Positions 5,792-48,383 of a stretch of DNA of 64,000 nt are shown in pieces. The stretch comes from an uncultured Oscillospiraceae bacterium (GTDB lineage Bacteria; Bacillota; Clostridia; Oscillospirales; Ruminococcaceae): contig CAYJIJ010000003.1 of the NCBI GenBank assembly GCA_964370185.1, positions 2,349 to 66,348 of the forward strand, given 5' to 3'. The notes beneath the pieces were generated by a model. It saw nothing but the letters and a program-made list of their open reading frames with translations. It had not been told where the DNA came from and did no database searches. The stretch's first letter is position 1; each line of letters starts with the position of its first letter. Made by a program: the position numbers and the translations under genes.

Positions 5792-7141
5792 TTAGTTATT
5801 ATTTTGTAATAATACTGCATTAATCAATTCAATAATTTCTTCAATTGGTTCTTGCATATTGGCATCGGACAGTCTTTTGATAATCTCATCAATAGCCTCC
5901 GATGGCATATGTCTGTCACAAAGCATATGAAATTTTTCTTTTACCCAATTAATATCTACTGCTGTGTTGGGGTCTCCGAGTGGCTCAAAAGATTCCGAAG
6001 CGTATAATTCGCCGTTTTTGGTGCTTATAGTCACTGAGGCTAAACGCTTTGCAGGAAAATTAGCTTCAAATTCAGGATTTACACAAAACTCTACACATTC
6101 CATAAGCTTCATGGTTTCCGGATTTGTTCGCATGTAATTTTCTCCTACTTCAATACCGGTAAAGTGCCCCTCTATTAGAGTTGCACAAACAGGATAAGCC
6201 ATACTGTATTGTGCCTCGTCACTCGTAGTAGGTATGTCTGTGGATAGCTTTGTAGCTGCTTCAAATGTATGGATAAGTATTTTATTGATGTCTGATACTG
6301 CTATTTTGTGTTTTTTTTGGATGTCCATCACTGCTAATATTGCAGGCTGTGCCCATCTGCAACAAGGAAACCACTTATAGTTTAGCTTTAAAGTTTCCCA
6401 CTCATTTCCGAGTGTGTTCAAAAGATAGTTATATTTTTCATCACCTAAAATATAATTTTTACCCGTCATACCATTCAGAGCCGCTTCTACGGATAATGCA
6501 CCGATAATTATGCCAAGTTGAACGCCATCTTTGTTCATTGAAGGCGCCTCCACATTGCGCATGACAGGTGTTAGAGGGCCATGGAAATCAGCTATTGCTA
6601 AAGCAGAGGACAATGTATCCTTGTCTAAGTTTAACAGTTTGCCCATGCCGGCAGCAATTCCAATAGTTCCCCATGAGCCACTTCCATGATAAAAATTGTA
6701 ATAGTCTTGCATTGCGATTCCATGCCGTATTGACACTTCATATGCGACAACCATCGCTTCCAAAAATTCTCTATATGACGATTTATTTGCAATGGCACAC
6801 GGAAGTAATGCGCCAAAGATAACAGCTCCCGGATGTCCTTTCAAAATACTATATCCATCATCCGCATCCAGTGCATTAATACAATACGCATGTGCAGTAA
6901 TTGCCCCAATCATATTGAAAGTTTCTTCATGCCCAACAATAGGAATACTCCCATCTCGAAACAGTTTTCCTCCCATTGCAAACCCACATTCAGAAGAAAG
7001 TGTTTGCGAACCACTAACAAGACAATTGAAATGATCCACAACACTTATAATAACTCTTTGTTTTACTTCATCAGGTATATTTTCCCATTTTGAACTAATT
7101 ATAAAATCCTCCAATGAGTTTTGAATACTATTTATTCCCAT
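5792..7141 (-). CDS. MmgE/PrpD-family protein, paralogue A
   Basis: 449 aa from ATG 7141 (GGAGG 8 nt upstream). I rejected the longer TTG start at 7186. Shares blocks NALDADDG, KGHPGAV, FYHGSGSWG, PSMNKDGV, FPCCRWA and PTTSDEAQY with paralogue B. Confidence 0.8.
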   Translation of the reverse strand: MGINSIQNSLEDFIISSKWENIPDEVKQRVIISVVDHFNCLVSGSQTLSSECGFAMGGKLFRDGSIPIVGHEETFNMIGAITAHAYCINALDADDGYSILKGHPGAVIFGALLPCAIANKSSYREFLEAMVVAYEVSIRHGIAMQDYYNFYHGSGSWGTIGIAAGMGKLLNLDKDTLSSALAIADFHGPLTPVMRNVEAPSMNKDGVQLGIIIGALSVEAALNGMTGKNYILGDEKYNYLLNTLGNEWETLKLNYKWFPCCRWAQPAILAVMDIQKKHKIAVSDINKILIHTFEAATKLSTDIPTTSDEAQYSMAYPVCATLIEGHFTGIEVGENYMRTNPETMKLMECVEFCVNPEFEANFPAKRLASVTISTKNGELYASESFEPLGDPNTAVDINWVKEKFHMLCDRHMPSEAIDEIIKRLSDANMQEPIEEIIELINAVLLQNNN

Positions 7142-7180
7142 TATTAAAACCTCCGAAATCATATCTGCATAAATAACACT

Positions 7181-7229
7181 AACCAAACGGAAGCAAGCAC
7201 ATCTAATTCTTGTTTCCGTTTGGTTTTTT
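7181..7229 (+). terminator. Stem-loop plus T-run, oriented as a plus-strand terminator, in the mttB-prpD(A) intercistronic gap
   Basis: aaccaaacggaa (7181-7192) pairs with ttccgtttggtt (7214-7225), followed by tttt. On the coding (minus) strand there is no U-tract. Confidence 0.35.
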
Positions 7230-7239
7230 AAGATTAGAA

Positions 7240-8655
7240 TTATCGTTGTTCAGCAAGTTTAATTGCTTCTATTGGCACACCATTAGACAGAAGGACTTCT
7301 CGCACTTTTTCAACTCTTTCCGAATCAAGTTCATGTTGGTTGTAATTGCTAATTGCTTTATTAATATAGTCGGTTATATTATCACTTAACTGTGTTGTAG
7401 GTTTTTCAGTAACACCGCGTACACCGATTATAGGAGTATAGAGCTCATCTCTAAAATTCTCTAAAGTGTGATCTTCCACTAAATAAACGCCTCCGGCACC
7501 CAGTTCGTCAATTAAATCCTCTGCGAGAGTTTCTTCATTAAATACAGGCTCTCTCATCATACGTTTTATATAATTGAGAATTTCGAAATCTCCTATCATT
7601 TTCTCAAATGAAAATGACCCAAAACCACTTACTATACCACAACCTTGCAGTACAAGGCTAATATTATTCTGAAATGCAGTTGAAAGCACCATCATAGTTT
7701 CATATCCTGCCTGCATATCTGCAACTTTTGCATCGGTTATACCACCGCCGCCTCTGCTTGGAAGTCCATAAAATTTCCCCATAAGTGCACAATGTTTATA
7801 ACATATTGCACTCTCAGGTGAGCCTATTGCAATAGCACCTGATCGCATATCTGCACCTGTAGACTGCATTCCGTACAAGACCGGAGTTCCGGGTCTAACC
7901 ATTTGTGCAAATGCAATTCCTGCCAATATTTCTGCATTAGCAAGTGCCATAGTACCTGCTAATGTGACAGGAGATGTAACTCCGGTCATACCTACCGATG
8001 AAACGGCAAATGGTTGTCCGTATTTTGCATATGTAATAAGTGTTTCAAGCATTGCATCATCGTATTGAAGTGGAGTAATCGGATTAACGGGGCAGACAAT
8101 ACGAGGTTTTTCAATAATATTCTCATAACCGCCGTAGTACGCAGCCAATATATCCATGAGCATTTGCACTACTTTATATCGCCCTGTTCCTGCATAAATA
8201 CACTTTTCGGAGTACAGCAAGGTAGCATAAAGCATGAGTGCAACTGAATGTTCAGGGGGGACATCGCTCGGATGCACTATTTTTCCTCCTGAAATTTTAA
8301 ATTCAGGATTGTATTCCAAAATTTTTATTGCTCTAATATAATCTTCCATTGTTCCGTCCACAACTGCTCCGTTAGGTTTAGTTATGGAGGGGCTTCCACT
8401 ACCGGGAGCAATAGCGGTTTCACCTCCGCCTATTTCAACATTATATTTTGGATTTTGTGCATACATCGTAAATTTTGAAGGGGCTTTCCTTACAAAATTC
8501 ATAACCTGCTCTTCGGTGAAATATGCGGTTTCGCCTTCAACACGAATCCCGTTGTCTTTGAGTATTTCTATTGCATCAGGGTGGTGAAACTGTATGCCTG
8601 TTCGTGCAAGGATACGCATAGCAGCATCGTGAATAATTTGTAGTTTATCTTGCAT
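7240..8655 (-). CDS. MttB-superfamily (trimethylamine methyltransferase family) protein, non-pyrrolysine type
   Basis: 471 aa. The N-terminus MQDKLQIIHDAAMRILARTGIQFHHPDAIEILKDNGIRVEGETAYFTEEQV is typical of the MttB family. The ORF is uninterrupted, with no in-frame TAG. Confidence 0.85.
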   Translation of the reverse strand: MQDKLQIIHDAAMRILARTGIQFHHPDAIEILKDNGIRVEGETAYFTEEQVMNFVRKAPSKFTMYAQNPKYNVEIGGGETAIAPGSGSPSITKPNGAVVDGTMEDYIRAIKILEYNPEFKISGGKIVHPSDVPPEHSVALMLYATLLYSEKCIYAGTGRYKVVQMLMDILAAYYGGYENIIEKPRIVCPVNPITPLQYDDAMLETLITYAKYGQPFAVSSVGMTGVTSPVTLAGTMALANAEILAGIAFAQMVRPGTPVLYGMQSTGADMRSGAIAIGSPESAICYKHCALMGKFYGLPSRGGGGITDAKVADMQAGYETMMVLSTAFQNNISLVLQGCGIVSGFGSFSFEKMIGDFEILNYIKRMMREPVFNEETLAEDLIDELGAGGVYLVEDHTLENFRDELYTPIIGVRGVTEKPTTQLSDNITDYINKAISNYNQHELDSERVEKVREVLLSNGVPIEAIKLAEQR

Positions 8656-40050: not shown

Positions 40051-41430
40051 ATGGTGCCGATAATAAACTATCTCATATCATTTATAGCAGTTCCAATTGC
40101 AACAAGACTAATTTTCCCAGAAGAAATGGGTAAGATTAATCTTATTATATCGAGTGCGCAGACAATATTATTATTCGTTCTTTTAGGAGTGGACCAAGCG
40201 TTTTTTAGATTTTACTATGAACAGAGCAATCAAAAAAATAAAAAGCTGTTATTTACATTTTGCATATCGATATCTGTTTTAGTAATATTAATTTCATCGG
40301 TAATTTTATACCCATTTGCTGGTCAAATATCCTTTCTATTAATTGGCACAAATAATAAAGCTGTATATATATCACTTGTTCTAACAGTAACATTTTCAGC
40401 TATAAACAGATATCTTACACTTATTTTTAGGTTGGAAGAAAAACCAATAGCATATATGGTTCAAAGTCTTTTGGCAGTACTGCTTTCAAGGACAGCATTA
40501 ATAGTTACCGGAATAATAAATCCGATAGTGGAATACTATATTGTCATTCGCATAATTCAAAATTCCTTAGTGACTCTTCTGTTAATAATAATGAATCTTA
40601 AAAAAATGAATTTTAATGGAATGAAAGAGTTTTCGAAAGACAGCTTTAGACCTATATTTCATTTTGCACTTCCGATAGCTCCTAATAATATGATAACATC
40701 GCTTAATAACTACATTATAAATCTTTTCATTGCTTTTAAATTGAGCTATGAGCAACTTGGGATTTATACATCCGCTGTTGCAATTGCTGGAACTGTTTCA
40801 GTTGTGCAAGTGACGATTAATTTATTAATCGGCCCTTATATTTTAAAAAATTATAAGAGGGAAGACCACAACTTTTGGCTTATACATAAAGTAGTTTCCT
40901 ATATATTATCATTACTGATAGTGGGAATAACAATGATACAACCGATATTTTTGTTATTGTTAGGGGAAAAATATAGAGAGGCGTCTAAACTATTTACCCT
41001 TTTGCTGTCATCTCCAATATTTTATACAATCACAGAAACGACATATATGGGATTTACTATAATGAAAAACAACAACAAAAGAGTTATCAGTAGTGTAATT
41101 GCACTGACTATAAATGCCTTATTACTATCAGTGCTTTACTTTGTACCTAATATTGATATTATATATGTTACTGTCGTTACTGCTATAAATGCATTTGTTT
41201 TAATGATGGCACAGAGTATATTAGGGCAGAGATTATTTAAAACTCTTGAAAACTATAACCATATCTTTTTAGTCGCCATAGTTATAATTATTTGTACACT
41301 CATAAACTTGAATATATATGGTATATTCAAGTTTATATGCTTATTCTTAACTGCGCTTACATTAACACTCATCTACAAGGCTGATATTATATCTGCGTAT
41401 AAGCTTATCAAAAATAATTATTCACATTAA
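40051..41430 (+). CDS. wzx: Polysaccharide flippase (Wzx / MOP superfamily); 5' end uncertain
   Basis: Polytopic protein with the N-terminal signature ...PIATRLIFPEEMGKINL. The in-frame upstream peptide (VNIKKEYNKIFKSLFGYS) also looks Wzx-like but has no canonical start codon. Confidence 0.7.
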   Translation: MVPIINYLISFIAVPIATRLIFPEEMGKINLIISSAQTILLFVLLGVDQAFFRFYYEQSNQKNKKLLFTFCISISVLVILISSVILYPFAGQISFLLIGTNNKAVYISLVLTVTFSAINRYLTLIFRLEEKPIAYMVQSLLAVLLSRTALIVTGIINPIVEYYIVIRIIQNSLVTLLLIIMNLKKMNFNGMKEFSKDSFRPIFHFALPIAPNNMITSLNNYIINLFIAFKLSYEQLGIYTSAVAIAGTVSVVQVTINLLIGPYILKNYKREDHNFWLIHKVVSYILSLLIVGITMIQPIFLLLLGEKYREASKLFTLLLSSPIFYTITETTYMGFTIMKNNNKRVISSVIALTINALLLSVLYFVPNIDIIYVTVVTAINAFVLMMAQSILGQRLFKTLENYNHIFLVAIVIIICTLINLNIYGIFKFICLFLTALTLTLIYKADIISAYKLIKNNYSH

Positions 41431-41537: not shown

Positions 41538-42635
41538 CTACCCCCAAACAACCTCTCCCTGCATATAACTATCCACCGAATAAGCAAATAATATCTGCTC
41601 ATACCCGATAATATCAAGCTCTGAGAGAAGCTCTTTGGTTACTTTCTCAGCATCCACAAAGGTAATTCTTCCATAATGCGGTGCTAAAAAGGGGAGGTAT
41701 GTCAGGGTGTGGGTATCGCCAAATACCAAAAGCTCGGTGTCGTATGGCGAAAAAACAGTTATATCAATCATGGTGGCTTCACCACCTAAAAAGACATCCA
41801 TCGGGCTTCCAAGCTCAGCGGCGTCTTTAAAGAACAATTCATGATGAAGTGATATTCCATCTTCGTCAAGACGCTCCACCAAATACTCCCTATCGTAGCG
41901 GTTAAAATGATACAGGCTGATGCTGTCCTGCCCCACATCTTTGTAGGGGGATTTATCATATACATCACCGTAAAATGAGAATGTATTATGCTCAGTATCA
42001 TACCGCTCGAAGGAATGGGGTGTGAGATTTAATCTGCTTGCAAGCTCACGGTATAGATAGTAAGAGCCTGTTGAGGTGAGGTCGGACTGTGTTTTATAAT
42101 AAAGTGGTAAATCATGGCTTGCAAAAAGTGTGGGATATACATCAACAGTGGAAACAATTCCCTCTAAATCACGGTAGACATCTTCTATATATTTCTTTTG
42201 ATTAAATAAAAGCGTGCTTGAATAACTTCCGAGCATGTGTTGATTTATACCGCAGGAGGTGGGGACAAGCATCATATATGTCGGCACTCGGTATGTGGAG
42301 GTGAAATTCTTTATGCCCTCGGTGTTTAAAAAAGTTACACTTTCGTCCGCTGGAGGGATATTCTCAAGCAAGTAATCCTCGGTGATAAATATGCCATTCT
42401 GCTCCTCATAACCGCTCTCAAATCGCACCTTGATAAGTCCACTTCTAAGTTCGGAATTAAAGGGGAATAGCTCTGTTATGAGCGTCTCCAGAGAAGTGAA
42501 AAAGCTTTGCTTATCCGAAGTGTCGGGCTGTATGGGCAGGCTTGGATAACTCAGCGCCGCTCGAAAAGAAATTGTGGTCGTGGTTATTAAAATCGCCGCA
42601 ATTATAAAAACTGCCGTGAGCCTTTTGGGTTTCAT
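41538..42635 (-). CDS. DHHW-family (AlgJ/AlgX-like) protein with substituted catalytic motifs
   Basis: Signal anchor plus family-like blocks. LYYKTQSDLTSTGSYYLY stands where the family has ..TDHHWT..GAYYAY, and FGDTHT stands where it has DS.. Confidence 0.55.
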   Translation of the reverse strand: MKPKRLTAVFIIAAILITTTTISFRAALSYPSLPIQPDTSDKQSFFTSLETLITELFPFNSELRSGLIKVRFESGYEEQNGIFITEDYLLENIPPADESVTFLNTEGIKNFTSTYRVPTYMMLVPTSCGINQHMLGSYSSTLLFNQKKYIEDVYRDLEGIVSTVDVYPTLFASHDLPLYYKTQSDLTSTGSYYLYRELASRLNLTPHSFERYDTEHNTFSFYGDVYDKSPYKDVGQDSISLYHFNRYDREYLVERLDEDGISLHHELFFKDAAELGSPMDVFLGGEATMIDITVFSPYDTELLVFGDTHTLTYLPFLAPHYGRITFVDAEKVTKELLSELDIIGYEQILFAYSVDSYMQGEVVWG

Positions 42636-42672
42636 GACTACATCCCTCCTTTCTGTCTAAATTGTAGAGTGT

Positions 42673-42873
42673 TTAATCACTCTCACTCTCTTCTTCTGCT
42701 TCTTGCTTCTTTTTCTCATCATAAATAGAGTAGAGTTTGGCAATAAGAAAATAAAATATTAAAGTTGTAATTGCTCCTAAAGGAGTACTCAAGTCATTAC
42801 TTATTCCTAATCCTGAATATAATAGCGTAAATACAGCATAGGGCACTATAAAAAGCAAAAGGGCCTTTATCAT
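42673..42873 (-). CDS. Small two-TM membrane protein with acidic tail
   Basis: GGAGGAA RBS. MIKALLLFIVPYAVFTLLYSG...ITTLIFYFLIAKLYSIYDEKKKQEAEEESESD. Confidence 0.5.
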   Translation of the reverse strand: MIKALLLFIVPYAVFTLLYSGLGISNDLSTPLGAITTLIFYFLIAKLYSIYDEKKKQEAEEESESD

Positions 42874-42933
42874 AATGAACTTCCTCCAAATCTTGTTATA
42901 AGCCTTAAGCCAATACAATCTTCACAAATGAAT

Positions 42934-44265
42934 TTACACCATAAAAACAACCGATAAAAATAAGAGCAGAAGCGATTGTAAAGAGCTTATTATCTGCCAA
43001 GTAGCAGGATAATGTTTTTCCATAAATTTGGCGGTCACACTATAAATACTACTGCAAAGAACTACACATAAAATAAGTGTGCCCATATTTGCACTGAGAA
43101 GATAAAGGGTTATATTATCGGTTGCTGGTAGGTCCGATAGATTAAACATTGAGCGTATATAAAATGTAGCTTCTGGTATGCTTGAGGCAGTGATGAATAC
43201 AAATGAGAATATTGTTACACAGAATGTCATCATTCTGCTTATGAAATCGGGTGTGTTTTTAACTATAAATGGATAGAGATACTGCTCCCCTATAATAAAT
43301 AATGCAAGGTAAATTCCCCATAATAGATAGTTTGGAGTAATTCCATACCAGAGAGAAATGAGCATACTCACCAAAATTATATTGAGTGAAGCGGATAGGA
43401 AACCACCGCTTTTTTCACCGAGTTGCATATAGACATATTTTCGCACAAATTGGTTTATCGTGATATTAAATCTGGCAAAAAACTCATCCACACTGCGGGA
43501 CATGAATGGATAGTAAAAACTCATAGGTAGCTTAAATGAAAACAGATATGCAATTGCTTGCGCCATATCGAAATAGGCGGAGAGTGTAAAATAAAGAGAA
43601 AATGTAAAGCTTATCACCAAAAGCCAAATGCCGAGAACCGAAAAATTTGAGTGGCTAATTTGGGCTAAATCGGTGTAGAGACGGTGCACACTGTCTGCGA
43701 GTATTACTTTCTTGGCAACTGCGGAAATGAGCATTACAGCACCTTTGCTTATTGAGGTAAGCGAGGGATGAACTTCTTTAATAGGATAGCGAATTTCCCC
43801 CAACCTCACAAATGGCCCACAAAATATCTTGCCGAAAAACAGGCTGTAAACTGCATATAAAAGGAGATTTTTCTCAGCTTCGAGCTCTTTTTTATATATG
43901 TCCACCGTGTAGCTTATACCGCACAGCGCAACTACCATTACACCTGCAACAGTAATGCCACTTTCGGTTAGAATAACACTGAAATAGCTAAATATTGCAA
44001 GATTTTTTATCACATTAATAACTGTAAAGAACAATGCAAGTTTTTTTATTTTGCGTTTTGAAAGCCTGCCTATAAGTAAGCCAAAAATATAGTCGGTAAA
44101 TGTCATTGTAAGAAGGATGTATATATTTGCCTCGGAAAGAGTGAGGTAGAATGCAAGGGAAATTATCAAGAGTGAAACATATTTATATTTATTGGGTGAG
44201 AAATAGTAAAAAGCCATTGAGAGTGGCAAAAAGAAAAATATAAAGGTTAAACTAAAAAACTCCAA
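42934..44265 (-). CDS. MBOAT-family membrane O-acyltransferase homologue (AlgI/DltB/PatA-like) with substituted conserved His residues
   Basis: Colinear with AlgI-type sequences. SRSVDEFFARFNITINQFVRKYVY compares with SRSITEFWRRWHISLS.WLRDYLY, and SLWYG with GLWHG. TTG start at 44265 sits 8 nt after AGGAGG. Confidence 0.7.
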   Translation of the reverse strand: MEFFSLTFIFFFLPLSMAFYYFSPNKYKYVSLLIISLAFYLTLSEANIYILLTMTFTDYIFGLLIGRLSKRKIKKLALFFTVINVIKNLAIFSYFSVILTESGITVAGVMVVALCGISYTVDIYKKELEAEKNLLLYAVYSLFFGKIFCGPFVRLGEIRYPIKEVHPSLTSISKGAVMLISAVAKKVILADSVHRLYTDLAQISHSNFSVLGIWLLVISFTFSLYFTLSAYFDMAQAIAYLFSFKLPMSFYYPFMSRSVDEFFARFNITINQFVRKYVYMQLGEKSGGFLSASLNIILVSMLISLWYGITPNYLLWGIYLALFIIGEQYLYPFIVKNTPDFISRMMTFCVTIFSFVFITASSIPEATFYIRSMFNLSDLPATDNITLYLLSANMGTLILCVVLCSSIYSVTAKFMEKHYPATWQIISSLQSLLLLFLSVVFMV

Positions 44266-44454
44266 AGCAGGCACCTCCTATTATAAAATATTTCGAAAAA
44301 ATTATGGTGTTGCCACCTGTAATCTAAATTTGTTTTATTAAATCTTAGTCAAAATTATAGCTGAGTGAAAGCATTCTGCTCTCATTACTACATTTGCAGT
44401 TTACCCACCCGAAAAAAGAGAACTATAAATATTCGCACAATTAAAGCCTAATTT

Positions 44455-45054
44455 TTAACGCCCTAATTCATCCTTAACTTTTTCTAAAATCTTACTGTAT
44501 TCTTCATAACTCATAAGTGAATTTAGCACGCTTACTAAAGAGTTGCTTGAAAGGCGTTTTGGTAGGGAGAGCTTTTCAAGGAGTGCACGGCGAATATCGC
44601 TACTGTTATCAGCGCCCGATATGCCATCGGTGATAAAGTCCTGTTTTGTGATGAGCCTTGTAGGCGCAGAAGTGGTGCAGGAAATTACACCTGAAGCGGC
44701 AAGAGCGTCCATTATCACTTCTTTAGGTACTCCCTCAACACCTAAAGTGCCCTCAGCGGAGGGGGAGGCTTTTCGGTGCTCTTTCCCTGGGATATCCGGG
44801 ATGTAGACATGGGTTATTTTGCCCTCTTTTATAGCGCCTTTAAGATAGTTTCGAATTTTAAATCCAGCCATGTCGGAATCAGTGAAGATAATAAGCCCAT
44901 TTTCTTTGGCAAGGCGCCTGAGCAAGGCAAGCATTTCTTTGTCCTTAAATATCCTATATCCACCGAGTTCTATTATATTCGCATCGATTATAGAGCTCAG
45001 TTTTGATTTGTCGTACCTGCCCTCTACAACCACGGTTTCGGTTAATTTTATCAT
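44455..45054 (-). CDS. Toprim-domain protein, RNase M5-like (DUF4093-type C-terminus)
   Basis: VVVEGRYDKSKL...IIFTDSDMAGFKIRNYL Toprim motifs. 199 aa. Confidence 0.6.
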   Translation of the reverse strand: MIKLTETVVVEGRYDKSKLSSIIDANIIELGGYRIFKDKEMLALLRRLAKENGLIIFTDSDMAGFKIRNYLKGAIKEGKITHVYIPDIPGKEHRKASPSAEGTLGVEGVPKEVIMDALAASGVISCTTSAPTRLITKQDFITDGISGADNSSDIRRALLEKLSLPKRLSSNSLVSVLNSLMSYEEYSKILEKVKDELGR

Positions 45055-45189: not shown

Positions 45190-46236
45190 TTATTTCTTTG
45201 AGTCATGCAGTAGTGAGATGAGGCTGATTACTGTTTTTTCTAAAATAATTCTGTCATTCACCTTAGAGCTTTTGAGTGATAAATCGGCATCTGTAAGCAG
45301 TGCGAGTGCCTCATATAGCTTAGACGCTGTATGCTTTGCCGATTGATTATAGGCGTTTTTTAGCCTGAAATTGTTTTTAGAAGTAAATCCAAAATCCTCA
45401 CTCGCAGTGGATAGAGGCACATTGTTCGCCTGCGCTACCTTAGCCCTGTATAAATCGCAAAAGCTGTTTGAAAGGACTGCCATAATCATGGTGGGCGGTT
45501 CTTTTAGATAGAGAAGGTCGGAGAGTATCCGCATAGCCTGAGAGGGATTTTTGGCGTTTATTGCATTTGTTAGGTCAAACACCCTCGCTTCCACTGTTTC
45601 CACGGTGTAGCGGTGGATATCTTCATTTGTAATATTATCGCTACAGATGGCAGATAGTTTTGAGAGCTCATTATTTAGTATGGACATATCCGTGCCACAG
45701 TGACGAATTAATTCACTTGCCACATTTTTCTCGATATTCTTACCACTTTTTTTAAGGGTGCGAGTGATAAATGCAGTTAAGTCGGATGGTTGTTGTTTTT
45801 CGAATTTTAAAATATTGCCATTTTTCTCAAAAGCAGCATTTATCAGTTTGCAGGCTTTATTCTTTAAGGGGGAAAAGCTATTATCCTTTATCACAAGCAA
45901 AAATAAAGTGTGCGGTGGCATGTCTTCCGCCGCTTTTATTACTTCTTCTATGAGCTCGCCTGCATTATCGCCCTGTGGGATGGGGGGAGTGTTTAGCATC
46001 ACCGCCCTAAATCCACCAAACATCGGCACTGATTCTATGCTATTTGTAAAAGCTTCCCCAGTGGTCTTACTGCCGTCGAGCTGTAAAAAATCGCCGTCAT
46101 TTTTGGCGGTAAATTCCTTTATCATGTTAACCGCATGATTTATTAAGTAATGCTCGTTTCCATATATTAAAAAGAGGCGGGAGAAATCCTCCTGCTTTAA
46201 AGTTTCTTTGAGTTTGGCGATATCGAGTTTTGCCAT
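45190..46236 (-). CDS. holA: DNA polymerase III subunit delta
   Basis: 348 aa. FLIYGNEHYL N-terminus. Conserved position downstream of comEC. Confidence 0.8.
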   Translation of the reverse strand: MAKLDIAKLKETLKQEDFSRLFLIYGNEHYLINHAVNMIKEFTAKNDGDFLQLDGSKTTGEAFTNSIESVPMFGGFRAVMLNTPPIPQGDNAGELIEEVIKAAEDMPPHTLFLLVIKDNSFSPLKNKACKLINAAFEKNGNILKFEKQQPSDLTAFITRTLKKSGKNIEKNVASELIRHCGTDMSILNNELSKLSAICSDNITNEDIHRYTVETVEARVFDLTNAINAKNPSQAMRILSDLLYLKEPPTMIMAVLSNSFCDLYRAKVAQANNVPLSTASEDFGFTSKNNFRLKNAYNQSAKHTASKLYEALALLTDADLSLKSSKVNDRIILEKTVISLISLLHDSKK

Positions 46237-46282: not shown

Positions 46283-48322
46283 TTATTCATATATGTAGTA
46301 ATTATATTCATATTCATCGTGATAAGAGCTGATTTTAAAGCTGTTATCATGCTTAATTAAATTATTATCCTCGTCAATAATGCAGTTATACAGGCTATCG
46401 GCGTCATTAGAAACAATTATACCATAATTCCCCGACTTTTTTAATAGCGAAACATCATTATTTACAATTTTTATATCACCCGACGAAGTAAGCTCAACGC
46501 TAAAGTCGTCACTTAAATTAATTTTACACTCGGTGGCAAGTAGTGTTTTGCTCTCTACAAGACTGTTTTGCAAGAATGTGGAGGTGCTTTCATCGGAATA
46601 TACGAGGTTTTTAGGAGTGGTTTCGGTGAGATAATCGGCAAATGCACCCGATATTTGCCCCGTGGATATTACCGTATCAGCCATTACATCGGCATGCCTA
46701 TACGAAGAATAATCCTCCACAATCGCTATCTCGGCACCTCGATGATTGAGCACAAAATATCCATCACCCATTTTTATGCCAAATCCGTTGTAAAACTGAC
46801 TGTACAGGGTGGCATGTCCGATAAAAACTAAAACTGCTGAGCATAAAAGTGATAAACACATCTCATGGGAGGAGGCCTGAAGATATATGGCTAAATAGAT
46901 TATCACTGAGGCGAGGATGAATGTCAGCAGTAATGTTGGGGTGTCCACATATATTACTGAATAGGGAATTTTACTTACAAACACCGAAATTTCAGCAATC
47001 ATCATCAATAAAGCTCCCGATAAAAATCCAAATAGTTCACCAGTAAAGCCAAACAGACCGCCTAAAACTCCCGTGATAAGAGAAGAAATAAGGGAGAGCT
47101 GAGCGAGGAGACCACAAAGTATATTTGCAAATGGAGAAATGAGTGAAAAATATCCGAAATAGAGTGGAGTAAGCACAATTAGAGATAGCCATGCCGCCAC
47201 CGATTGTAGCGCTAAACCATGCAGAACATTTAAAAATCTATTTTTAGATTTTATAGCAAAACGAATCTTTAAAAACGGAGTGATAAGACATAGCCCAAGA
47301 GATGCCGAATAAGAGAGTATAAAACCAACATCGTGGACTATCAAAGGGTTAAGTAGCAAACTTATAATCCCTGCTACTGCCAGTGATGTGAGAGTGTCGG
47401 CTTCTCTGAATATGATATTTGCGATGAGTGAAAGCAAAATCATTATCACTGAGCGTGTCACCGAGGGGGAGAAGCCACAAATGCAGGCAAAGAGAATGGG
47501 GACGGGGAGGGTCAGCAGCGAAGACATGCGAATAGGTATTCCCATATAACACAAAAATCCTAAAAAGCTAAAACTGACCACCGACATATGCAGTCCGGAC
47601 ACACTTGTAAGATGCGAAGTGCCTGCAATATTCATGCTCTGCGTGAGCTCATAGTCCATATATCTTTCATCGCCTGTCGCAATTGCTACTGCAAGCCCTG
47701 AATAGTCAGAATTAACACTGTGCAGTATATTTTCAGTTATGTAATTTCTAAAGCCTACCGATAGCTGAGTAAGGGGGAAGGCGGCTTCTTCGGATGGAGT
47801 GATATTTACTACTGCGCTTCCCCTTAGGTGAATATCGTCCGAAATCTGCTCGCCGAGCATTTTATATGTTGGCATATCGGTGAGCACGGAGGTGTGAAAA
47901 CTTTCCCCTTCATCAATATCAAGCTTCCCATATGTGGTAAAGCTGATGGTGAAATTTTCGGGAATTCCCTGTACATTTAACGCAGTTGCCCTTGCATTTA
48001 TTAGGTGACCTCCATAGTAATCCTCAATTTCGGTAGCAGTAGCATGTATCTGAACTATCTTGCCGCCCATCTTTGCTAAAGGGATGAGCTCATTATTTAG
48101 ATGCAATGAAAGACTTATTAGCGCAAAAGAAACACCAATCAGAAAAACTCCTACATATTTTATATTTTTTACGATTTTATCGGTATTGACAAAAAGCAAA
48201 ACCGCTCCCACCGATAAAATCAGCATGGAAACGGTCAGTACCACTCTAATATTAAAATAAAAAGGCATTAGCAGGGAAGTGATAATATATCCACTCCCCA
48301 TAAAGAAAAGGGGACGCTTCAT
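46283..48322 (-). CDS. comEC: ComEC/Rec2-family DNA internalisation channel protein
   Basis: Competence domain with multiple TM helices (TGDERYMD...NIAGTSHLTSVSGLHM). ATG 48322 after GGAGAG. Confidence 0.8.
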   Translation of the reverse strand: MKRPLFFMGSGYIITSLLMPFYFNIRVVLTVSMLILSVGAVLLFVNTDKIVKNIKYVGVFLIGVSFALISLSLHLNNELIPLAKMGGKIVQIHATATEIEDYYGGHLINARATALNVQGIPENFTISFTTYGKLDIDEGESFHTSVLTDMPTYKMLGEQISDDIHLRGSAVVNITPSEEAAFPLTQLSVGFRNYITENILHSVNSDYSGLAVAIATGDERYMDYELTQSMNIAGTSHLTSVSGLHMSVVSFSFLGFLCYMGIPIRMSSLLTLPVPILFACICGFSPSVTRSVIMILLSLIANIIFREADTLTSLAVAGIISLLLNPLIVHDVGFILSYSASLGLCLITPFLKIRFAIKSKNRFLNVLHGLALQSVAAWLSLIVLTPLYFGYFSLISPFANILCGLLAQLSLISSLITGVLGGLFGFTGELFGFLSGALLMMIAEISVFVSKIPYSVIYVDTPTLLLTFILASVIIYLAIYLQASSHEMCLSLLCSAVLVFIGHATLYSQFYNGFGIKMGDGYFVLNHRGAEIAIVEDYSSYRHADVMADTVISTGQISGAFADYLTETTPKNLVYSDESTSTFLQNSLVESKTLLATECKINLSDDFSVELTSSGDIKIVNNDVSLLKKSGNYGIIVSNDADSLYNCIIDEDNNLIKHDNSFKISSYHDEYEYNYYIYE

Positions 48323-48383
48323 GATGTCACTCTCCATAGATGTCGTTCAAAGGCTATCGTCACACAGATTATACAGCGATAAT

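Follow-up and report, generated by a model that had tools for sequence, protein, structure and literature searches.

A MBOAT–DHHW protein pair of gut Oscillospiraceae that has lost the residues of the acetyl relay and is probably a repurposed, non-catalytic membrane complex

Pairs of an MBOAT protein and an SGNH partner are the standard bacterial route to the acylation of envelope polymers, and the mechanism of their relay was settled only in 2023-2025. In this relay the acetyl group passes from acetyl-CoA to a histidine of the MBOAT protein, then to the tyrosine of a C-terminal FxYxxF motif, from there to the serine of the SGNH protein and finally to the polymer (PMC12148441). Here we analyse such a pair in a 64,000-nucleotide stretch of contig CAYJIJ010000003.1 from an uncultured Oscillospiraceae bacterium (the window), where an MBOAT gene (42934..44265, minus strand) is accompanied by a DHHW-family gene (41538..42635, minus strand) coding for a PatB1-like SGNH protein with a match to PF14286, and we argue that the two proteins probably serve a non-catalytic function. 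The PatA1–PatB1 secondary cell wall polysaccharide O-acetyltransferase of Bacillus cereus and B. anthracis shares with this pair both protein families, their gene order and adjacency, and the predicted topology of a polytopic MBOAT protein with an N-terminally anchored, extracytoplasmic SGNH-like domain; moreover, no structure matched the DHHW protein better, by fold or by profile, than PatB1 (5V8D/5V8E) and 4NZK. PatB1 has a Ser337/His202/Asp200 triad, and Arg359 in its DxRY block forms the oxyanion hole (PMC9487903). In the DHHW protein of the window, however, S337, H202, D200 and R359 correspond to T308, D185, Q183 and E330, and the MBOAT protein, unlike PatA1, lacks the two histidines and also the C-terminal FxYxxF. 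The linkage differs as well, the pair being found here with comEC-holA-rnmV and not with an S-layer or secondary cell wall polysaccharide locus.

The other described systems depart further from this locus. For the PatA–PatB relay of Campylobacter and Neisseria (Anderson et al. 2025, PMC12148441), all elements, namely RWH, WHG, the C-terminal FxYxxF and the SGNH triad, are present in orthologues of our pair in sister genera and in paralogues in its own genome, but every station is missing in the pair itself. The clostridial CcsH–CcsI pair belongs to a cellulose synthase locus and arose by duplication of wall-modifying pairs (PMC7710045); its members are putative active O-acetyltransferases within a polysaccharide synthase operon, whereas the pair studied here has neither a synthase linkage nor the catalytic residues. 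In the DltB–DltX–DltD system of teichoic acid D-alanylation, DltB is the closest solved MBOAT protein, but our MBOAT protein scored only 73 bits against NCBIfam LTA_dltB (cut-off 375), the operon contains no DltA or DltC, and a small open reading frame (ORF) between the two genes is only superficially DltX-like, being unconserved, near-neutral and devoid of FxYxxF. As for the alginate proteins AlgI, AlgJ, AlgF and AlgX, there is no alginate context at the locus, and the DHHW protein reached 12.4 bits against PF16822 ALGX, for which the cut-off is 26.5. Loss of catalysis from these folds has precedents among animals, where HHATL is a His-less MBOAT protein. Both HHATL (mentioned in PMC5831804) and an RNA binder with the SGNH fold, the OSK domain of Oskar (PMC9487903), exemplify the persistence of an MBOAT or SGNH fold without catalysis in a binding or regulatory role; these are, however, single eukaryotic proteins, while here both partners of a bacterial relay have lost catalysis together and have stayed coupled. 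Full-text literature searches turned up the papers on PatB1, CcsH/CcsI and PatA/PatB, but none on a bacterial MBOAT protein that is His-less and has a triad-less SGNH partner, and none on a bacterial pair whose two members have both lost the relay and still remained under selection.

We examined whether the two proteins belong to the families that their motifs call to mind. The MBOAT protein matched PF03062 with 51.5 bits (cut-off 27), and the DHHW protein matched PF14286 with 47.9 bits (cut-off 25). AlphaFold (AF2) modelled the MBOAT protein from an 88-sequence alignment with a mean predicted local distance difference test score (pLDDT) of 95.1, and in a Foldseek search the model best matched DltB (6BUG; template modelling (TM) scores 0.65/0.70), followed by HHAT, PORCN and LPCAT3, at a probability of 1.00. 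The DHHW protein, modelled with a pLDDT of 92.8, is predicted to start with a membrane-anchor helix at residues 3-32, after which comes an extracytoplasmic domain. In Foldseek this ectodomain matched 4NZK with TM scores of 0.66/0.78 and PatB1 of B. cereus (5V8D) with 0.60-0.76, the target-normalised TM scores being 0.78 and 0.71-0.76, respectively, and AlgJ and AlgX were distant fold matches with TM scores of 0.4-0.6. Using the DHHW protein as a single sequence, a search of the PDB returned nothing meaningful and a family profile was required; searched with this profile, the solved structures gave 4NZK at 4.7e-38 and PatB1 (5V8D) at 4.1e-33. Because the Pfam scores, the AlphaFold confidence and the fold and profile matches all point in the same direction, both proteins are, as far as predicted structure can tell, real and well-folded members of their superfamilies.

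To locate the catalytic columns of the MBOAT protein, we aligned it with DltB 6BUG by phmmer and with more than 60 canonical relatives by MAFFT, numbering residues throughout on the 446-amino acid reading that starts at 44274. The segment EFFARFNITIN falls opposite EFWNRWHMSLS of DltB, and SLWYGIT opposite GFWHGIT. Thus, the position of DltB His289 is occupied by Asn270 (codon 43465..43467, minus strand), where the canonical RWH reads RFN and both flanking tryptophans are replaced by phenylalanine, and the universal catalytic MBOAT histidine (DltB His336, PatA H315) is replaced by Tyr310 (codon 43345..43347, minus strand), which turns WHG into WYG. The C-terminus ends in ...LLFLSVVFMV (42937..42966, minus strand), and the FxYxxF acyl-shuttle hexapeptide is absent. 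In a first set of 80 loci from species-representative genomes, 41 of them His-less (40 from one clade plus a single outlier, L060) and 39 canonical, position 270 was asparagine in 40 and glutamine in one of the His-less loci, and position 310 was tyrosine in 28 and phenylalanine in 13, while both positions were histidine in all 39 canonical loci. FxYxxF ended 59 of 63 canonical but none of 63 His-less MBOAT sequences. Furthermore, K99, R157, R168, R267 and R289, which are conserved in canonical MBOAT proteins, vary in the His-less clade.

The DHHW partner has been altered in the same manner. Its YYKTQSDLT aligned to YY.TDHHWT, VFGDTHT to.KDS.A. and VDAEK to.D.RY, so that in Block V TDHHW has become TQSDL, in Block I KDS has become GDT and in Block II DxRY has become DAEK; the profile alignment to PatB1 and 4NZK gave the same register. 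Accordingly, Q183-S184-D185-L186 (42078..42089, minus strand) stands in place of PatB1 D200-H201-H202-W203, D307-T308 (41712..41717, minus strand) in place of the Block I D-S that carries the nucleophile Ser337, and D328-A329-E330 (41646..41654, minus strand) where PatB1 has the D-x-R of Block II with the oxyanion Arg359. Wherever the partner gene was found in the His-less clade, it lacked the catalytic histidine, the equivalent of PatB1 His202 never being His, and most partners also lacked the serine and the arginine: among 37 partners of His-less MBOAT proteins the Ser337 equivalent was R in 12, E in 8, G in 6, S in 5, K in 4 and D and H in one each (canonical partners, S in 15/15), and the oxyanion arginine was present in 3/37, against 12/15 canonical partners. 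Judged from these alignments, all four known stations of the acetyl relay are gone, and the published relay cannot run. These results bear on a sequence-only reading of the window, made from family motifs, which had assigned the loss of three conserved histidines to the MBOAT protein and the substitution of the DHHW and DS motifs to its partner. The changes from FWRRWHISLS to FFARFNITIN and from GLWHG to SLWYG, with loss of the catalytic histidine, were borne out by phmmer and MAFFT, and those in the partner by the family and profile alignments. In contrast, the third supposedly conserved histidine, in WG.YHG, has to be struck from the list, as its column is unconserved, being F in 19, Y in 17 and H in one of the canonical clostridial relatives. 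The C-terminal FxYxxF and the Block II oxyanion arginine are losses that this reading had not included, and they bring the catalytic elements lost to five in total.

Next, the distribution of the degenerate pair was determined. In a search of 5.8 billion proteins, the 23 closest relatives of the MBOAT protein (32-97% identity) all carried RFN and W[YF]G, and the following 55 all carried RWH and WHG; in a library of 1.84 billion representatives, the top 149 clusters at 50% identity included 90 with a His-less representative. About 60 relatives, which represent at least 26 genera of the Oscillospiraceae, showed the same catalytic loss, nearly always with the pair immediately behind comEC-holA-rnmV, and when the family was sampled with one genome per genus (121 genomes), at least 26 of the 121 genera carried the degenerate form. 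The MBOAT and DHHW genes are adjacent and co-oriented in the window and in about 55 related loci. The sequence-only reading had left it to a survey whether the MBOAT and DHHW variants travel together, and they do: among de-duplicated loci with both genes, a His-bearing MBOAT protein was paired with a triad-bearing partner in 36/36 cases and a His-less one with a triad-less partner in 57/58. The sole uncoupled case is L060, a non-syntenic locus in a Schaedlerella sp. metagenome-assembled genome (MAG; MBOAT 5989-7398, DHHW 7410-8585), whose MBOAT protein has WN and LYG at the two histidine motifs and GLFIQF at its C-terminus, and whose partner keeps the Asp/His/Ser triad (TDKHW, KDS) with glutamine at the oxyanion arginine. 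Since it is placed within the canonical Lachnospiraceae sequences in the tree, L060 is probably an independent loss. Two of the 50%-identity clusters, P0100 (823 amino acids) and P0212 (800 amino acids), are natural single-chain fusions that join a degenerate MBOAT to a degenerate DHHW protein, and their existence argues that the two halves act as one unit. Another three fusions (P0161, P0176 and P0180) combine a partly degenerate MBOAT protein (N/H, F/A and T/H) with a DHHW domain in which the triad is present but the oxyanion arginine is missing. Separately, in two Angelakisella loci (L026 and L027, from MAG086/087) a degenerate MBOAT gene has neither comEC-holA-rnmV upstream nor an adjacent DHHW gene and is followed by an 806-amino acid ORF, which, from its N-terminal residues alone, we take to be PriA-like; here the two genes have come apart, or else the DHHW gene is located elsewhere.

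The genomic context of the pair made it possible to follow its history. In the first 80 loci, comEC-holA-rnmV lay directly upstream of 32 of the 41 His-less but none of the 39 canonical MBOAT genes; the genus sampling later revealed the same linkage for canonical positional orthologues as well. The slot after comEC-holA-rnmV holds a fully canonical pair, with FWRRWH, WHG, the C-terminal FxYxxF, TDHHW, KDS and DxRY, in 11 genera, nine of whose genomes have no other MBOAT gene, and in at least 26 genera the pair found there is degenerate. Intermediate forms occur too. L104 and L109 have kept FW..W/F N and a vestigial C-terminal motif whose tyrosine is replaced by phenylalanine, as it is also in L060, and in three syntenic intermediates the shuttle tyrosine is a cysteine (L106, PFLCFTL; L136, DFLCIIGS; L139, GFLCMHG), which could in principle carry a thioester. 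The MBOAT protein of L136 keeps WHG while its DHHW partner is already triad-less. In a maximum-likelihood tree the main His-less clade had a Shimodaira–Hasegawa-like approximate likelihood ratio test (SH-aLRT) support of 100, and the syntenic sequences, degenerate, intermediate and canonical alike, were split from the non-syntenic canonical ones with a support of 94; a larger tree required two changes of state for the MBOAT protein and one for the DHHW protein. In the simplest history that these sequences suggest, an active pair linked to housekeeping genes was dismantled once, in an ancestor, and then persisted for a long time. With so few changes (2 + 1) a sign test is powerless, and repeated independent co-loss as a statistical proof of coupling was rejected. 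In Angelakisella, a conserved ORF of about 156-171 amino acids, beginning with MKLFC.ERAIQVNVVGYQFPY, immediately precedes the degenerate MBOAT gene (L025, 5491-5961; L035, 5384-5899); in L025 it is situated between rnmV and the MBOAT gene, and L035 has no rnmV.

We considered whether the apparent losses could be an artefact, in that the catalytic residues are present but aligned in a shifted register. Nothing we found speaks in favour of this, although the unproductive single-sequence PDB search does show how divergent the DHHW protein is. The phmmer alignment, the MAFFT alignment with many canonical sequences and the profile alignment against solved structures all agree, none of them restored the histidine, aspartate or serine, and the register is anchored by the flanking F265, R268, W309 and G311 in the MBOAT protein and Y180, T182 and D307 in the DHHW protein, leaving this explanation with virtually no probability. 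Alternatively, the genes might be functionless, decaying remnants whose frames are open by chance or owing to a recent inactivation, as the loss of all catalytic residues and a faster evolution than that of the canonical orthologues might suggest. To assess this, we calculated the ratio of nonsynonymous to synonymous changes (dN/dS) by the Nei–Gojobori method for ten close genome pairs and obtained 0.055-0.14 for the degenerate MBOAT gene and 0.09-0.19 for the degenerate DHHW gene, against 0.05-0.17 for holA, 0.03-0.24 for rnmV and 0.16-0.28 for comEC. Divergence was then compared at equal rnmV identity (40-60%), where canonical orthologues were 60-61% (MBOAT) and 42-46% (DHHW) identical, the degenerate ones 34-36% and 30-33%, and holA 30-34%; the degenerate pair thus changes about 1.6 times faster than its canonical orthologues, at about the level of holA. 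By this sequence measure, constraint appears to have been relaxed after the loss, yet to have stayed that of a needed protein. Decay is highly improbable in view of the dN/dS of about 0.1, of full-length frames in about 60 species diverged to about 30% identity and of the confident fold predictions for both proteins, and a truly decayed copy looks different: a canonical-type MBOAT gene beside rnmV (G015:C5:16586-17973; L146/L147) contains at least seven in-frame stops. This copy stems from a 65%-complete MAG and is either a real pseudogene or the product of poor assembly.

A further explanation holds that the degenerate pair serves active MBOAT–DHHW paralogues of the same genome as a subunit for regulation or scaffolding, like pseudoenzymes that control their active relatives. 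The window's own genome does carry two further pairs beside the degenerate one (C69, 7992-11050, and C10, 17898-20414), both canonical with all motifs present, and at least two MBOAT matches were found in all 23 degenerate-bearing genomes examined first. In three genomes, however, G007 (100% complete, 1.2 Mb), G082 and G103, the degenerate syntenic pair contains the only MBOAT protein (E<=1e-5), so that an active paralogue is not required, and the paralogues are neither orthologous nor linked to the degenerate pair in the tree. Because these three genomes carry no other MBOAT gene, the pair is independent of an active paralogue; a general dependence was rejected despite the 23/23 earlier genomes, and the subunit explanation is quite unlikely. 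The two canonical DHHW paralogues differ in build: the one at C69:9515-11050 has 511 amino acids, with a low-complexity linker rich in Pro, Ser and Glu behind the anchor and a long, acidic tail at the C-terminus, and the one on C10 has 375 amino acids and no linker or tail of this type. It might also be supposed that the pair is still an acyltransferase, rewired to use other residues or another donor, for instance a fixed Tyr310, an SGNH Thr/His pair or a cysteine thioester. The existence of clade-specific invariant polar residues, the tyrosine at 310 in 28/41 His-less loci and the cysteine in place of the shuttle tyrosine in the basal intermediates L106, L136 and L139, of which L136 keeps WHG, would fit such an enzyme. 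Nevertheless, phenylalanine at 310 in the other 13/41 loci means that this position holds no essential acyl acceptor or base, and Tyr310 was rejected as a new fixed acceptor for the clade; the SGNH nucleophile position is R, E, G or K in most partners, and no alternative serine, cysteine or threonine is fixed nearby. The loss of basic residues that canonical MBOAT proteins conserve and the roughly 1.6 times faster evolution, which fits the removal of an active-site constraint, also count against a rewired enzyme, and we regard it as unlikely.

Taken together, the pair is a positional orthologue of a PatA/PatB-type envelope O-acetyltransferase, and we consider it probable that it is a repurposed, non-catalytic pseudoenzyme complex. 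The sequence-only reading had offered two options, either that the pair has co-degenerated into pseudoenzymes and is retained without catalysis or that it uses a different chemistry; the first of these is favoured by the loss of the relay residues in intact folds, the dN/dS of about 0.1 and the fact that no replacement residue has become fixed. According to our model, the ancestor would have been an active pair of an MBOAT protein and a DHHW-family SGNH protein, encoded in Oscillospiraceae on the downstream side of comEC-holA-rnmV. A single large sub-lineage, to which the genome of the window belongs, has dismantled the acetyl relay in both proteins, together with several conserved basic residues of the MBOAT protein, and has retained their folds, adjacency (up to fusion in some relatives) and purifying selection; this retention would imply that the pair works jointly as a non-catalytic membrane complex. 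The surviving job of the complex is probably, as a pure inference, to bind or handle what the ancestor once acetylated, the envelope glycan or its lipid-linked precursor, with the anchored SGNH-like ectodomain serving as a putative glycan-binding module and the MBOAT body as a membrane partner or conduit. The former ligand sites may still be in use, because residues around them are conserved in both the canonical and the degenerate class (Y180, T182 and D307 in the DHHW protein; Y122, D125, Y127, S232, D236, R268, W309 and G311 in the MBOAT protein).

Three points have to be set against a non-catalytic pair. Asparagine or aspartate at the position of DltB H289 is normal in many eukaryotic MBOAT proteins, so the change at position 270 alone is not a proof of inactivity. 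The co-loss goes back to a single ancestral event, which makes the coupling of the MBOAT and DHHW states one observation and not a repeated convergence. Finally, conserved residues specific to the clade may form a new active site, the candidates being D61, K90, E130, K149, T230, R347 and S357 in the MBOAT protein and N104, Y167 and H320 in the DHHW protein. More tentatively, at somewhat less than even chances, the non-catalytic pair would represent a new functional class of bacterial envelope machinery on an acyltransferase scaffold, a membrane complex of two proteins without enzymatic activity whose task is to bind, guide or sense a wall glycan or its lipid-linked precursor. Such a complex would be a conserved housekeeping-operon component in many gut Oscillospiraceae genera and self-sufficient where no active MBOAT protein exists. 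Should the pair be a true pseudoenzyme complex, MBOAT–SGNH scaffolds would have a second, acyl-independent envelope role in abundant gut anaerobes, and pipelines that annotate such genes as "MBOAT family O-acyltransferase / DHHW family protein" would predict wall acetylation too often, in at least a fifth of the genera sampled from the family. The locus offers a rare natural series of catalytic, intermediate and dead forms in a fixed genomic context, and since active and dead orthologues occupy one locus in sister genera, it allows a direct study of how an enzyme turns into a non-enzyme. This orthologous series in a housekeeping context and the independence from active paralogues are the main additions of this work.

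With regard to the layout of the locus, the minus strand of the window carries, in this order, comEC (46283-48337), holA (45190-46236), rnmV (RNase M5; 44455-45054), all three assigned by NCBIfam, the MBOAT gene, a small ORF and the DHHW gene, and between rnmV and the MBOAT gene the minus strand showed no terminator. On the plus strand, glycosyltransferase, Wzy-like and Wzx genes run towards the DHHW gene up to position 41430. Membership of the pair in this polysaccharide cluster was rejected, given that the cluster is convergent and does not lie beside the pair in other genera, and the conserved linkage is the one to comEC-holA-rnmV upstream. That both ORFs are full-length and intact was confirmed, their frames being undisrupted, but the notion of a three-gene unit did not hold, only the pair being conserved. 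The small ORF (42673..42873, minus strand) codes for 66 amino acids with two membrane helices and an acidic tail and has its own ribosome-binding site. In the 97% relative L114 it is intact, but its identity is no more than 83%, whereas the neighbouring genes reach 93-97%, and its dN/dS of 0.78 is nearly neutral; it is absent from 80 other loci, where the gap between the MBOAT and DHHW genes is 3-50 nucleotides, including the same-genus L013 (41 nucleotides). No FxYxxF was found in it, and a role as a DltX-like acyl-shuttle microprotein was rejected on this ground as well as on its occurrence in L114 alone and its dN/dS. Thus, it is probably a species-specific addition of uncertain reality and not part of the system. 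The MBOAT gene itself can be read as 443 amino acids from a TTG at 44265 or as 446 from a GTG at 44274, and an AGGAGG lies 7 nucleotides ahead of the TTG; most likely the TTG is the true start, giving 443 amino acids as in the 97% relative P0001.

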